Below, one piece after another: positions 1-5,878 of a DNA stretch of 64,000 nt. The translations under genes and the position numbers were made by a program. Every line of letters starts with the position of its first letter. Position 1 is the stretch's first letter. This DNA is from Acidobacteriota bacterium (lineage in GTDB: Bacteria > Acidobacteriota > Polarisedimenticolia > Polarisedimenticolales > JAIQFR01). The stretch is taken from positions 16,793 through 80,792 of the forward strand of contig JBGQAU010000002.1 of the NCBI GenBank assembly GCA_041494445.1, in the 5' to 3' direction. The notes beneath the pieces are model-generated. The model had not been told where the DNA came from and ran no database searches. It saw nothing but the letters and a program-made list of their open reading frames with translations.

Positions 1-512
1 CACGGAGGGGAACGCTCCGCCAGGACCTCCCGGAGCAACTCGCGGAATCGGTCGCACTCGTGCTGGGCCTCACCGTCGTCAACGAATATCTCGCCGGCCG
101 CGGGCCCGACAAGGACGAGCGGTGGGCCGCGTGGGCGCTCCGAAAGCTGGTGGTGTTTCCGTTCGCCGTGCTCCCATTCCCGCTGCGCGAGGCGGGCTCC
201 ATGCTCGAGGCGAAGCTCCGGGGCCGCGGCCGCGGGCAGGCGAGGACCTCGCCGGCGCTCGAGCTCCTGACGAAGACGTGGGAGGCGGGGGCGGACGCCT
301 GGGACATCGTCACCGGGCCGCCACGACGCCGGGCGCAAGCGCTCGAGCAGGCGGCCGAGGTCGCGGCGACGTGGGCAGGGCTTCCGGTCGCTCAACCCAG
401 GCTCACGGGCCATTACCTGTGGGATGTCTACAAGGGCCGGGAACACCCGGACTCGGCGTGGCAATTCATGCGAGGCGTCCTGTACGGCTCCAAGAGGAAA
501 AAGGGCCGATAG
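1..512 (+). CDS. hypothetical protein of the element (5' end probably outside window)
   Basis: The frame of the listed 60..512 ORF stays open back to base 3. No recognisable motif. Stop is TAG at 510-512. Confidence 0.35.
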   Translation, partial: RRGTLRQDLPEQLAESVALVLGLTVVNEYLAGRGPDKDERWAAWALRKLVVFPFAVLPFPLREAGSMLEAKLRGRGRGQARTSPALELLTKTWEAGADAWDIVTGPPRRRAQALEQAAEVAATWAGLPVAQPRLTGHYLWDVYKGREHPDSAWQFMRGVLYGSKRKKGR

Positions 513-661: not shown

Positions 662-690
662 TTGACGTGGGGCCAGGTGGGGAGTAAGTT
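662..690 (+). promoter_or_regulatory. candidate sigma70-type promoter for the small-ORF/xis/int module
   Basis: TTGACG (662-667), a 17-nt spacer, then TAAGTT (685-690), inside a 350-bp non-coding gap upstream of the coupled ORF chain. Confidence 0.35.
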
Positions 691-864
691 CTCCTCGAAA
701 ACGGCCCCGCACCCGGTAGGAGCCGGGCGCGGGACCTGACCCGAAACGGTGAGGTTAACACCGATGCGGGCTGCGCGAATCGTACCAGACTCCTCCAACA
801 GCGCGAAGCCCCCGCGATGCCTCCTCGCCGTCCATCTGCGCCCACGCGGCGCGAGGAGGATCCG

Positions 865-1134
865 ATGCCGAAGAAGACGTCCATCCTGAAGCAGGCTCCC
901 CAACCGACTCCGGAGCAGCACCTCGCCGGGTGCGCCGAGAACCTGGCCTACTCCGCGAACATCCTCCTGGCGGGGGCCCAGCTGTTCGGCACGATCGTGG
1001 ACCGGGCGCGGGACTGCAAGGATCGAGAGACCGCCGACGCCATGATCGAGTTCCAGAGGTGCGGTTTCGACGCGGCGGCCATCAGGGTTGGCGAGGACCT
1101 GGACGAATACCAGAAGGCCCTGGCGGAGGCGTGA
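865..1134 (+). CDS. hypothetical protein (89 aa)
   Basis: ATG at 865 is preceded by GAGGAGGA. It is part of the listed 817..1134 ORF. The stop lies 2 nt before the next start. Confidence 0.45.
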   Translation: MPKKTSILKQAPQPTPEQHLAGCAENLAYSANILLAGAQLFGTIVDRARDCKDRETADAMIEFQRCGFDAAAIRVGEDLDEYQKALAEA

Positions 1135-1136
1135 CG

Positions 1137-1394
1137 ATGGGAGACCTCATCAGGTTCCCGGAGCGAAAGACCCCGCGCCACCGAACTGCGGAGGAGCGAA
1201 CCAACGCGACCTTTGACGCGATCGGACCGCCAGCCTGCGTCGTGTGTCCGATCCTCGCAACATGCAAGACCCTTTGTGCAGGAATGCTGGAGTGGGCGAG
1301 ACGGTCCGACGCGATCGAGGAGGCAGCGGAGGCGGCCGCAGCGCAACCGCGGCGCCCACGACGGTCCACGAATCCGGAAGGGAAGGGGGCATAA
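1137..1394 (+). CDS. small Cys4 protein (85 aa), paralogue of the next gene
   Basis: MGDLIRFPE... with C-x2-CP-x4-C-x3-C (CVVCPILATCKTLC). Ends ...NPEGKGA. In frame with listed ORF 930..1394. Confidence 0.55.
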   Translation: MGDLIRFPERKTPRHRTAEERTNATFDAIGPPACVVCPILATCKTLCAGMLEWARRSDAIEEAAEAAAAQPRRPRRSTNPEGKGA

Positions 1395-1395
1395 C
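1372..1395 (+). repeat. 24-nt direct repeat copy 1 (ATCCGGAAGGGAAGGGGGCATAAC), forming gene end, SD and next start
   Basis: Identical to 1590..1613. Contains the purine-rich GGAAGGGAAGGGGG just upstream of the next start codon. Confidence 0.9.
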
Positions 1396-1396
1396 C

Positions 1397-1612
1397 ATGG
1401 GAACCGTGATTCCTTTTCCTGTGAAGACCGCGGCGCCCGTCGAAACCCTGGCCGAGGCGGGCTGGCGCTGCCTTCTGTGTCCGACCGCGAAAGACTGCCA
1501 GGAGTTCTGCCCCCCGGTCCACGAAGCGATGGTCATTCATACGCGAGCGGAAGCCCGGCGCGAGGTGATGCGGCCGCGACCGCCGGAGGATCCGGAAGGG
1601 AAGGGGGCATAA
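1397..1612 (+). CDS. small Cys4 protein (71 aa), paralogue of the previous gene
   Basis: MGTVIPFPV... with C-x2-CP-x4-C-x3-C (CLLCPTAKDCQEFC). Ends ...DPEGKGA. In frame with listed ORF 1244..1612. Confidence 0.55.
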   Translation: MGTVIPFPVKTAAPVETLAEAGWRCLLCPTAKDCQEFCPPVHEAMVIHTRAEARREVMRPRPPEDPEGKGA

Positions 1613-1613
1613 C
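1590..1613 (+). repeat. 24-nt direct repeat copy 2
   Basis: Identical to 1372..1395. Immediately followed by the GTG start at 1614. Confidence 0.9.
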
Positions 1614-1859
1614 GTGAACCGCAAACTCGACCCCGTCTACCTGACAGAGGCGGAATTGGCCAGGCGGTGGTGTGCGTCGCGATCAACGATTCAGCGGCTC
1701 GCTCGCGCAGGTCAGCTTCCGCACTTCATCCGGCCGGCGCCGCCCGGCGGCCAGCCCCGCCGGCTTTACCGAATCGCTGATATCGAGGCGCTCGAGGCCG
1801 ACGGCTACCAGGACGCCGCGGCATTGGCGTTCCGGGCGCCGAGGAAGGGAAGGGGGTGA
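1614..1859 (+). CDS. excisionase / AlpA-like helix-turn-helix DNA-binding protein
   Basis: 81 aa with LTEAELARRWCASRSTIQRLARAGQLP (HTH-like). Sits directly upstream of the integrase. Confidence 0.6.
   Translation: MNRKLDPVYLTEAELARRWCASRSTIQRLARAGQLPHFIRPAPPGGQPRRLYRIADIEALEADGYQDAAALAFRAPRKGRG
1843..1856 (+). repeat. third, partial copy of the purine-rich core GGAAGGGAAGGGGG
   Basis: Same 14-nt core as in 1376..1389 and 1594..1607, 4 nt upstream of the integrase ATG at 1861. Confidence 0.85.
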
Positions 1860-1860
1860 C

Positions 1861-2988
1861 ATGGCCGTCTACAGTCGAGGGGAACAGTGCTGGATCGACT
1901 TCTACTATGCGGGCAAGCGGTACAGGCGACCCGCGGGCACGAACGGGAAGGAGGCTCGGAAGGCGCTCGACCGGATCAAGGGAGATATCGCGTCCGGCGA
2001 CTTCGATCCCGCGGACCTCGATCCACAGCCGGAGGAGCTCGGTGTGCTCTTCGAGAAGGCGCTCGACCTGTACATCGAGCACCGCGAGGCGCAGGGGAAG
2101 CAGCGGGCCTCGTATCTCTACCTGGACCGCCTGTGGCGCGAGGTGCTCAAGGGCCGGCCCGTCCGGGAGATCACGTCGGAGGAGATCGAGATGCACCTCT
2201 CGACGTGGGGCGAGGACCGAGACTGGGCACCGGCGACCAGGAACTCGACACTCATGCAGCTCTCCGGCTTCCTCTCGTACTGCTATGGCCGGCGGTGGAT
2301 TGAGAGTCACCCGACCGAGAAAGGGCGCGTGCCACTCCTGGCCGTGGACAACTGCCGCGAGCGGTGGCTTACTCTCGCGGAAATCGAGACGCTCATCGAG
2401 AAGGCGCCGGAGTACATGAAGCCGATGATCCGCTTCGCGTGCTGCACGGCGATGCGCCTCGGCGAAATCTGCACCTTGACCCGCGCCTCGTACCAGAAGG
2501 CCGAGGACGGGAAGCCCTACCTCGTGACCGAGCGGACCAAGAACGGCGAACGCCTCGTGTGGCCCCTGGAGGGATGGGCGAAAGAGTACGTCGAGGCCCG
2601 CGTCGATGATCTGCCGTTCCCGGGGTCGCACCTGTTCGCCGGGCCGGATGGCGAGGCCGCGAGGGAGGGGATACTCCGCGGCTTCCAGGCCGTCGTCGAG
2701 GCGGCCGGCTTCGAGTACGGGCGCACCCGGCAGGGGATCACGTTCCATTCCCTGCGGAGGACGGCCGCGACCCTGGCCCTCAACGCCGGAGTCCCGGAGC
2801 ACGTCGTGCAGAAACTCGGGAACTGGAAGGACCGCGGGATGGTCGCGTTGTACGCGAGGGTCTCGGACGTGACGCTCCGAGATGCCGCGGGAAAGCTCGC
2901 GGGGCTCATCGGCGGTAGTCACAAGGTGGTCACAATCGACCGAGAGGCGCGCGAAGCTGGCGCCGCGAGGATCGGCGCAAGTGCTTGA
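1861..2988 (+). CDS. tyrosine recombinase / phage-type integrase
   Basis: The N-terminal SAM-like region and the C-terminal catalytic region carry AMRLGEI (Arg), HSLRRTAAT (H-x-x-R) and a terminal LYARV Tyr. Adjacent to a tRNA. Confidence 0.9.
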   Translation: MAVYSRGEQCWIDFYYAGKRYRRPAGTNGKEARKALDRIKGDIASGDFDPADLDPQPEELGVLFEKALDLYIEHREAQGKQRASYLYLDRLWREVLKGRPVREITSEEIEMHLSTWGEDRDWAPATRNSTLMQLSGFLSYCYGRRWIESHPTEKGRVPLLAVDNCRERWLTLAEIETLIEKAPEYMKPMIRFACCTAMRLGEICTLTRASYQKAEDGKPYLVTERTKNGERLVWPLEGWAKEYVEARVDDLPFPGSHLFAGPDGEAAREGILRGFQAVVEAAGFEYGRTRQGITFHSLRRTAATLALNAGVPEHVVQKLGNWKDRGMVALYARVSDVTLRDAAGKLAGLIGGSHKVVTIDREAREAGAARIGASA

Positions 2989-2996
2989 TTCTCTTA

Positions 2997-3084
2997 TGGT
3001 GCCGAAGGCCGGACTCGAACCGGCACGGGCTTAGGCCCACTAGATCCTGAATCTAGCGCGTCTACCAAATTCCGCCACTTCGGC
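2997..3084 (-). tRNA. tRNA-Leu(CAG), class II with long variable arm, CCA encoded
   Basis: The reverse complement folds as acceptor GCCGAAG/CTTCGGC, anticodon stem CTAGA/TCTAG with loop TTCAGGA, T arm GCCGG-TTCGAGT-CCGGC, then ACCA. Confidence 0.9.
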
Positions 3085-5450: not shown

Positions 5451-5878
5451 GCGGCGAGGTCCCCTGGTACCGCCTGATCGACCACTCGGGGGACATCGCG
5501 ATGCTGGTGCGCGCGGCGACGCTCCCCGCGCTCTACGACGCGGCGGCGCGGGCGCTGTTCGACGTGATCCTCGACGTCCGGACCGTCGAGCCGCGGGAGC
5601 GGCTCGACATCGGCGTCGAGGGCGCCGTGGATGCGGAAGACCTGCTGGTGCGCTTCCTGTCGGAGCTGCTGTTCCTGCACGACTCGCGCGGCTGGCTCTT
5701 CCGTGGCGCCGAGATCCTCGACATGGGTCCCGATCGCCTGCACGCCTCGGCGATCGGGGAGCCTTTCGATCCCGCCCGCCACGCGATCCAGCGGGAGATC
5801 AAGGCGGTGACGTACCACCACCTCTTGCTGTCCGAGGACGCGGAGGGGTGGTCGGCGCGCCTCGTGCTGGATCTTTAG
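5447..5878 (+). CDS. archease (RtcB cofactor/chaperone family)
   Basis: HSGDIA near the N-terminus, KAVTYHHL near the C-terminus, and a ...LVLDL end, all typical of archease. The GTG start overlaps the rnr stop (GTGA). Confidence 0.85.
   Translation: MSGEVPWYRLIDHSGDIAMLVRAATLPALYDAAARALFDVILDVRTVEPRERLDIGVEGAVDAEDLLVRFLSELLFLHDSRGWLFRGAEILDMGPDRLHASAIGEPFDPARHAIQREIKAVTYHHLLLSEDAEGWSARLVLDL

Follow-up and report, generated by a model that had tools for sequence, protein, structure and literature searches.

The stretch of DNA considered here, called the window throughout, comprises 64,000 nucleotides (nt) from an Acidobacteriota bacterium (GenBank assembly GCA_041494445.1, contig JBGQAU010000002.1, positions 16,793 to 80,792 of the forward strand). 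Positions 1 to ~3036 belong to a prophage that has integrated in the tRNA-Leu(CAG) gene of an Acidobacteriota chromosome, and they form its right end (attR side). This prophage end contains five plus-strand genes in the order orfA-mini1-mini2-xis(HTH_17)-int, which follow one another with stop-to-start gaps of 2, 2, 1 and 1 nt (1134/1137, 1394/1397, 1612/1614 and 1859/1861). The genes mini1 and mini2 encode small proteins with four cysteines (Cys4), and both end in the same 24-nt cassette, the core of which returns before the start of the integrase gene int. The reading that fits the cassette best is a translational-coupling junction, in which a strong, extended Shine-Dalgarno sequence (SD) at the end of the upstream gene would serve termination and reinitiation.

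The Cys4 genes mini1 and mini2

The mini1 gene (1137..1394, plus strand) starts with ATG at 1137, ends with TAA at 1392-1394 and encodes a protein of 85 amino acids (aa), MGDLIRFP...CVVCPILATCKTLC...NPEGKGA. Its cysteine motif is encoded at 1236-1277, and the stretch around it is also given as ACVVCPILATCKTLC. The neighboring mini2 gene (1397..1612, plus strand; ATG at 1397, TAA at 1610-1612) encodes a 71-aa protein, MGTVIPFP...CLLCPTAKDCQEFC...DPEGKGA, with the cysteine motif at 1469-1510 (stretch also given as RCLLCPTAKDCQEFC). Common to both proteins are the MGxxIxFP start, the C-x2-C-P-x4-C-x3-C motif and the PEGKGA end. The similarity between them is limited to 37% identity over the C-terminal 52 aa (BLASTP, E=3e-6), and outside the cassette the nucleotide differences are saturated, amounting to 35/30/34 per codon position in 71 codons. 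The two genes are recognizable as ancient paralogues. The first-pass annotation had described them as tandem Cys4 genes which share the start, the motif and the ending and are otherwise diverged, and this description is borne out by the sequence, the list of open reading frames (ORFs) and the values above.

The relatives of these proteins are very few. A HMMER profile scan over 1.84 billion cluster representatives returned two proteins, P0003 and P0004, together with one spurious match in a long protein. P0003 is a homologue of mini1 (HMMER profile E=4e-6) with a length of 109 aa and the sequence MGDLVQFP...ACVACPELATCREACEPMIEW... The second protein, P0004, is 126 aa long and holds two units fused in one polypeptide. 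Its N-unit reads MGRVIRFP...CARCRNVERC...C, with seven residues (x7) before the last cysteine, and its C-unit reads ..TVLPFR...AGWRCLLCPNCKECRELCPEV...GPEGKGA, which is 54% identical to mini2 and orthologous to it. Word-indexed searches with mini1, mini2 and an alignment of five units found only the queries themselves, P0003 and P0004, and a local scan with a hidden Markov model over the ORFs in all six frames of the window and of 89 loci gave no further paralogues. Collection scans for the leader core described below, the cassette pattern, peptide patterns of mini2 and P0004, and both integrases likewise returned no further relatives, and P0004 had no tblastn match among the INPHARED phages. 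The family therefore consists of four proteins from three phage lineages among ~15 billion predicted proteins. Nothing significant was found for the mini proteins in Pfam, PHROG, NCBIfam or PDB sequences (PADLOC lay outside this search), so that the earlier impression of a layout without a described family holds for these collections and for INPHARED.

The locus of P0004, designated L005, is the principal source of comparison. Its order is a Bbp16-like phage gene, a conserved leader, an unrelated 102-aa gene orfA', P0004, a 428-aa integrase and tRNA-Met, so that P0004 lies directly upstream of an integrase gene that adjoins a tRNA gene; there is no HTH_17 gene between P0004 and int. The 102-aa product is the counterpart of orfA by position and has no evident sequence similarity to it. 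The order and the similarity of the units suggest that the duplication is older than the split of the two phages, although the match between the N-unit and mini1 is less clear than that between the C-unit and mini2. The L005 integrase has an N-terminal extension of ~22 aa (MITENRAATSG.., within 2710-2780 of the locus), the DNA of which holds GAACCGC, a heptamer that in the window stands behind the cassette where xis begins. It might be the remnant of a lost xis, the evidence being too weak for a call.

The comparison with relatives also describes the coding status of the two genes. Between mini1 and P0003 the proportion of nonsynonymous differences (pN) is 0.375 and that of synonymous differences (pS) is 0.66, with 29/31/48 differences at the three codon positions. 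Between mini2 and the C-unit of P0004 the values are 0.26 and 0.66, with 19/17/39 differences, so that pN/pS against these distant relatives is ~0.4-0.57. With changes in excess at the third position and pN lower than pS, the mini frames show protein-level purifying selection, and mini1 and mini2 are accordingly to be regarded as genuine proteins under such selection. The first-pass annotation had named, as a refuting outcome, ORFs without conservation or a coding signature in related elements; the ORFs proved to be conserved and to carry such a signature.

The repeated cassette

Cassette copy 1 (1372..1395, plus strand) has the sequence ATCCGGAAGGGAAGGGGGCATAAC and contains the codons for ..PEGKGA, the SD for mini2 and the TAA stop, with the ATG of mini2 2 nt after the stop. 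Copy 2 (1590..1613, plus strand) is identical, and the GTG of xis stands 1 nt after its stop. Both copies belong to repeat family D1, in which 44 nt agree at 82%; the identity of the last 24 nt is as first reported. Within them lies the 14-mer GGAAGGGAAGGGGG, which occurs three times in 64 kb, always on the plus strand, at 1376, 1594 and 1843; a search of the whole stretch that tolerated two mismatches gave no further copy. The local base composition predicts the 14-mer at any one position with a probability of 4e-8, which corresponds to ~0.003 expected per 64-kb strand. The third copy (1843..1856, plus strand), which had been noticed as a core before the integrase start, proved to be an exact 14-mer. 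It lies at the equivalent place in xis, ending 1 nt before the stop, and is read in another frame (..P RKGRG*), followed by the TGA-C-ATG of int.

In the mini proteins the 14-mer gives EGKG(A) and in Xis it gives RKGRG, and the Xis copy in a different frame indicates that the nucleotides matter and not the peptide alone. The identical 24-nt block is moreover a clear outlier, since the paralogues are saturated outside the cassette. Both cassettes have the rare alanine codon GCA (5% usage), and 7/7 synonymous positions, the stop counted, are identical between the copies within this phage. The PEGKGA peptide is itself conserved, which leaves ~7-8 free sites in the 24 nt, so that the extra surprise is ~0.5^7 = 0.008 and not 0.5^24. 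The proposal of the first-pass annotation that the RNA or DNA itself is under selection thus stands in part: the Xis copy in the other frame speaks for it, and much of the 24-nt identity goes back to the conserved peptide.

In L005, the cassette at the end of P0004 is GTCCGGAAGGAAAAGGGGCGTAAC-GTG, as compared with ATCCGGAAGGGAAGGGGGCATAAC-GTG in the window. The two versions have three differences inside PEGKGA, all of them synonymous purine-to-purine changes (GGG->GGA, AAG->AAA and GCA->GCG). Between the orthologues 3/6 PEGKGA codons are identical, against a background of 17/37 among identical residues. Across the lineages the PEGKGA peptide and the purine-rich character are kept, and the exact bases drift at the background rate. 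Set against this drift, the perfect identity of the two window copies weakly suggests that the cassette was copied or gene-converted within this phage, leading to homogenization of its copies, an option which the first-pass annotation had raised and which rests on seven sites and one outgroup. A G-quadruplex was considered for the G-rich core and rejected, as the L005 version GGAAGGAAAAGGGG is unable to form even a two-tetrad G4.

Junctions of the operon

The same plan is found at all four junctions of the window and at both junctions of L005 (6/6): GGrGG.., then TGA or TAA, then C, then 0-1 nt, then ATG or GTG. In the window, the orfA/mini1 junction (1124..1139, plus strand) reads GGAGGCG TGA CG ATG and has the architecture of the cassette junctions, which are GGGGGCA TAA CC ATG for mini1/mini2, GGGGGCA TAA C GTG for mini2/xis and GGGGG TGA C ATG for xis/int. 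In L005 the orfA'/P0004 junction is CGGGGCG TGA CC ATG and the P0004/int junction is AGGGGCG TAA C GTG. A C follows every stop (6/6), and the stop is TAA in 3/6 cases (window 1392-1395 and 1610-1613; L005 2706-2709). In both loci the stop lies within a few nucleotides of the next start and the downstream SD lies inside the upstream ORF at a functional distance. The spacing between SD and start is 4-7 nt, with AAGGGGG ending 7, 6 and 4 nt before the successive starts.

A 16S rRNA 3' tail containing CCUCC is universal in bacteria. With such a tail (3'-UCUUUCCUCC-5', assumed for the host), the extended SD GGGAAGGGGG can form ~10 pairs, G-U pairs included. The energies of the duplexes with this canonical anti-SD are -14.9 kcal/mol for the cassette and -20.6 kcal/mol for the xis/int junction, compared with -9.7 to -11.7 kcal/mol for the other SDs of the operon. 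A similar SD, GGGAAGGGAGGCGTAG..ATG, is present at another coupled junction of the same phage.

The start of mini2 has a further peculiarity of codon choice. Its codons 5-8 (the IPFP motif, 1409..1420) are ATT CCT TTT CCT, four consecutive rare T-ending codons with frequencies of 0.109, 0.073, 0.06 and 0.073 in phage genes and a joint value of 3.5e-5. The resulting pyrimidine tract (1409-1420) is complementary to the cassette and pairs with 1379-1389 in the minimum free energy (MFE) fold of -14.7 kcal/mol. Synonymous recodings with the normal codons of the phage have a mean of -18.7 kcal/mol, and 97% of them are at least as stable as the real sequence. An SD-masking hairpin made by these rare codons was therefore dropped as a candidate, since the rare codons weaken a pairing to which the PFP and GKG codons are otherwise disposed; they thus lessen the occlusion of the SD and do not create it. 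Such codon choice fits selection for an open initiation region.

The leader and the genes orfA, xis and int

The operon is preceded by a promoter-like element, TTGACG-17 nt-TAAGTT (662..690, plus strand), which returns in L005 as TTGACG-17-TACGTT. It is proposed from this conservation only, and a consensus promoter scan did not flag it at 662-690. It is followed by a structured leader of ~165 nt (697..864, plus strand) with ~85% nucleotide identity to L005. The MFE of the leader is -80.7 kcal/mol (z=-3.5, reached by 0/200 shuffles), and the L005 leader gives z=-2.1. The alifold consensus has four hairpins and an energy of -59.8 kcal/mol, and it is built on two sequences, so that covariation is not assessable. 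The last hairpin pairs CCUCCUC (823-829) with GAGGAGG (855-861), the SD of orfA, and the leader could be a translational switch over the whole int operon. No Rfam family matched it. A 2-nt insertion or deletion relative to L005 falls inside 817-864, which speaks for a non-coding stretch here and for an orfA start at 865. As a wider observation, the non-coding regions 545-600 and 655-870 are ~85% identical to L005 (about 1740-2020), and the neighboring proteins are unrelated or far more diverged.

The first gene, orfA (865..1134, plus strand; 89 aa), corresponds to a gene call in the metagenome contig L001 described below and has no family match above the cut-off in Pfam, PHROGs, NCBIfam or PDB sequences. 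The xis-like gene (1614..1859, plus strand; GTG start) encodes an 81-aa HTH_17 DNA-binding protein of the excisionase family. It matches Pfam HTH_17 with E=6.9e-7 and 29.9 bits (cut-off 27 bits) and PHROG 66, 'excisionase and transcriptional regulator', with 2.9e-7; its score of 18.5 bits against TIGR01764 'excise' is below the cut-off. The ORF at 1614-1859 thus has the marks of an excisionase-family helix-turn-helix protein, being small, of the HTH_17 (MerR-type winged helix) kind and beside int, and its excisionase activity is predicted. The last gene, int (1861..2988, plus strand), encodes a 375-aa tyrosine integrase (Pfam Phage_integrase 1.3e-17, Arm-DNA-bind_2 6.3e-8; PHROG 1 integrase 1.6e-53), which is ~28% identical to the integrases of several Pseudomonas phages (YMC11/02/R656, PMG1 and others). 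A second assembly, L004 (GCA_041479655.1, contig JBGOYL010000087.1), is otherwise 99.97% identical to the window and has a C>A change at window position 2718. By this change a TAC codon of int becomes the stop TAA, and the gene is annotated as two pieces of 285 and 60 aa; mini1 and xis are unannotated in that record. Either the prophage is decaying in that population or the stop is an assembly error.

The proposed ribosome relay

In the proposed mechanism, one promoter and the structured leader would drive the five-gene operon orfA-mini1-mini2-xis-int. Each hand-over point would consist of the extended purine-rich SD GGGAAGGGGG in the last codons of the upstream gene, followed by the stop, a C and the next start, where the terminating ribosomes would reinitiate. 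As a consequence of such reinitiation, the synthesis of Xis and Int is proposed to be chained to the translation of the preceding genes. The identity of the copies probably has three sources: the conserved peptide end PEGKGA, the use of the same bases as SD, stop and spacer, and homogenization within this phage. Of the options offered in the first-pass annotation, the coupling SD cassette is the one that fits all of the junction anatomy. The explanation as a whole, which combines the prophage end, the coupled operon, the hand-over at the cassette and paired mini proteins, is given a probability of about 60%.

Several points weigh against this explanation. The coupling is read from the sequence, and the 3' tail of the host's 16S rRNA is assumed to be the universal CCUCC. 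The local folds at the junctions are no more stable than those of shuffled sequences (z ~0), and they give no evidence of the SD-masking hairpin that is often used in strict coupling. The exact repeat of 14 nt exceeds the need of any SD, and its upstream GGAA part is not accounted for by pairing alone; the argument for homogenization, built on the seven sites and the single outgroup, is thin. With regard to the proteins, the signal of GC content at third codon positions is weak, especially for mini1 (0.65/0.62/0.71 at the three positions), which leaves conservation as the main evidence of coding. AlphaFold2 models have low confidence, with pLDDT values of 62 for mini1 (alignment of five rows) and 49 for P0004 (four rows), and nothing favors a particular biochemical role.

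Alternative explanations

The repeats may instead be recombination linkers at gene boundaries, where small genes are gained, lost, duplicated, split and fused by illegitimate or short-homology recombination and the SD is secondary. Several features have this appearance: xis, for which L005 has no counterpart between its mini gene and int, is present in the window with the exact 14-mer on both of its sides; mini2 is bounded by identical 24-mers; and the two units are separate in the window and fused in L005. Additionally, GAACCG follows the cassette at both window junctions, and GAACCGC is found again 11 nt after the L005 cassette. However, a deletion between the 14-mers flanking xis would not be clean, as mini2 would run out of frame into the int region, and between the mini1 tail and the L005 linker there is a large difference in length and no traceable homology. 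The comparison is also limited to two lineages. A simple insertion or deletion of the cassette was rejected as the origin of the split and fused genes, because the linker regions are not alignable. This explanation is considered unlikely, though not without some plausibility.

Another view is that the identity reflects history and peptide conservation, with PEGKGA inherited from the duplication, the copy in xis a coincidental or hitch-hiking SD, and the repeat free of special selection. With PEGKGA fixed, the ~7-8 free sites give a nominal p of ~0.008, which is modest and was computed post hoc, and the similar SD GGGAAGGGAGGCGTAG at the other coupled junction of the phage is not identical. This view is confronted with a further exact copy of the 14-mer, which is read in another frame and stands at the corresponding site, right before the stop of the following gene, at a chance of ~4e-8 per position, with the rare GCA codon common to both copies and with the saturation of the paralogues elsewhere, at all three codon positions. 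It is accordingly held to be rather improbable.

The run of five G together with an upstream SD-like stimulator may also resemble a programmed frameshift site, which would give mini1-mini2, mini2-Xis and Xis-Int fusions and mimic P0004. Slippage by -1 on GGG 1386-1388 would join mini1 to mini2 as ..EGKG-GIT-MGTVIPFP..; at copies 2 and 3, a shift of +1 would lead into the frames of xis and int. A stop followed by C is a weak termination context in Escherichia coli, every stop here has this context, and a fused homologue exists in the form of P0004. Nevertheless, the same sequence would need to slip by -1 at the first junction and by +1 at the second, there is no canonical slippery heptamer (X XXY YYZ), and no downstream stimulatory structure is evident (z ~0). 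The downstream genes each have their own start at a proper distance from the SD, and mini2 keeps the MG start of the family. The site thus lacks the features of the prfB and dnaX types and was rejected as a programmed frameshift, which is a very improbable explanation of the repeats.

Least probable of all is that Int (at arm-type sites), Xis or the mini proteins bind the 14-mers as DNA, protein binding being a possibility that the first-pass annotation had also envisaged: the 14-mers form three direct repeats near xis and int, and Int has an arm-binding domain, but they lie 1.14-1.66 kb from the crossover region (~3037), far beyond the usual arm span of ~200 bp or less, all copies stand at gene ends inside coding sequence with spacings of 218 and 249 nt and no helically phased array, L005 has a single copy, and none is near the promoter at 662-690. 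Arm-type and excisionase sites, which are clustered in att arms and usually non-coding, were therefore rejected, and the protein-binding option fell away.

Possible role of the mini proteins

The cysteine motif has an invariant C-x2-C-x5-C core and a fourth cysteine at x3 (x7 in the P0004 N-unit), and it spans 14 residues. The C-x2-C-x5-C-x3-C loop of each mini protein probably binds a single metal centre, which would be Zn or an Fe-S cluster. The fusion of the units in P0004 indicates, by the Rosetta-stone argument, that mini1 and mini2 probably act together as a pair, possibly as a heterodimer. Judged from their position, they are probably small metal-binding partners co-translated with Xis and Int that modulate integration and excision or lysogeny. 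In a bolder extension, the mini proteins would be an undescribed two-subunit, sometimes fused, Fe-S/Zn sensor that sets the direction or timing of prophage integration and excision. The cassette, in turn, would act as a portable module for coupling, which is carried from one gene end to another by gene conversion and is thereby able to split, fuse or insert small genes of the int operon. This extension is regarded as improbable.

The prophage end and its integration site

The GC content is 66-68% up to ~3000 and 73-75% beyond, in the host DNA. The homology to related Acidobacteriota genomes begins at 2996/2997, exactly at the 3' end of the tRNA, which places the Cys4 genes at the right prophage end in tRNA-Leu. 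The closest genomes are Acidobacteriota metagenome-assembled genomes (MAGs) labelled Terriglobia, and the RNase R of the host DNA is 83% identical to that of 'Terriglobia bacterium' MAGs. The tRNA-Leu(CAG) gene, found by ARAGORN at 2997..3084 on the minus strand, is the integration site (attR), and its 3' part from 2997 to ~3036 is supplied by the phage. In this part the gene differs from related Acidobacteriota genomes (L010-L013) by compensatory changes in the T-arm and one extra T up to ~3036; from ~3037 onward the sequence is identical to them. The 3' end of the tRNA thus seems to come from the phage, with the crossover in the region of the anticodon and variable arm.

One of these genomes, the 'Terriglobia' MAG L010, contains an 87-nt stretch (5744-5830) that is ~80% identical to window 2910-2996, the 3' end of the integrase gene, and adjoins its tRNA-Leu. 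It looks as if an earlier integration at this place had left a remnant; no integrase is present at that tRNA-Leu, where tblastn gave no match.

The upstream side of the prophage is visible in the metagenome contig L001, which is identical to the window and reaches 8.9 kb further upstream (window base 1 is L001 base 8865). It contains endolysin-like and protease-like genes and the gene of a 1917-aa LPD22 polyvalent protein. The latter occupies L001 3623-9376, and its C-terminal part lies in window 1-512; at its place L005 has a 135-aa Bbp16-like protein. No att repeat was found in the additional 8.9 kb, and the left end of the prophage lies beyond this sequence.

Comparison with known systems

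If the proposed reading is true, the operon is a clean natural ribosome relay, in which integrase synthesis is chained through four upstream reading frames, the leader hides the first ribosome-binding site, and the same bases serve as peptide, SD and stop. The mini proteins constitute a new, extremely rare orphan family of a familiar general kind, found in prophages of Acidobacteriota, a group with almost no experimental phage biology. The occurrence of split and fused forms predicts a physical partnership of the two units. The value of the finding lies in annotation, in a small test case of dual coding and SD constraint, and in a lead for the control of lysogeny in Acidobacteriota.

The C-x2-C-x5-C spacing occurs in the clusters of WhiB and of MutY/EndoIII. 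The mini proteins resemble the Wbl proteins of actinobacteria and actinophages and the MutY/EndoIII loop in their small size, the C-x2-C-x5-C core and the basic C-terminal tail. In contrast to Wbl proteins, their fourth cysteine is downstream and not upstream of the core, and the phylum is Acidobacteriota. The sole search result that points in this direction, a profile match to the MutY cluster loop, is not significant (E=0.43). Membership of the WhiB-like proteins (C-Xn-C-X2-C-X5-C) was rejected, as there is no Pfam Whib match and the fourth cysteine is downstream.

In spacing only, the cysteines C-x2-C-x5-C-x3-C of mini1, mini2, P0003 and the P0004 C-unit are identical to the auxiliary [4Fe-4S] motif CX2CX5CX3C of the SPASM domain of radical SAM enzymes (PMC5715301). 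Unlike SPASM proteins, the mini proteins are free-standing, at 71-85 aa, and have neither the rest of the seven-cysteine motif nor a radical SAM domain, and the P0004 N-unit has x7 before its last cysteine. A SPASM or twitch assignment was likewise rejected, given proteins of 71-126 aa with four cysteines per unit and no Pfam match at E<=1.

The gene order is similar to that of xis-int modules integrating in tRNA genes (lambda-type, P4/AlpA-type), where an HTH_17 gene is coupled just upstream of an arm-binding tyrosine integrase near a tRNA att site. It differs from them by the two Cys4 genes and orfA in the same operon, behind a conserved structured leader, and L005 departs from such modules in having no HTH gene at this position. 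A split and a fused form of a small ORF pair upstream of excision genes recalls FseA of ICEMlSymR7A, where two adjacent small ORFs upstream of the excisionase are reportedly joined by programmed frameshifting and exist as single ORFs in other elements. Unlike in FseA, a start and an SD are present for each mini unit separately, and frameshifting is unsupported here.

The closest general parallel is termination-reinitiation coupling, as in trpE/D, trpB/A, ribosomal protein operons and many phage operons. As in those systems, the stop and the start lie 1-2 nt apart, the SD stands in the last codons of the upstream gene, and such junctions follow one another along the entire operon. The proposed mechanism would thus be translational coupling of an ordinary kind, and no known principle is overturned. 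What sets the present operon apart from such coupled operons is the reuse of one 14-24-nt sequence at three successive junctions, in two frames, which at the same time encodes a conserved peptide end.

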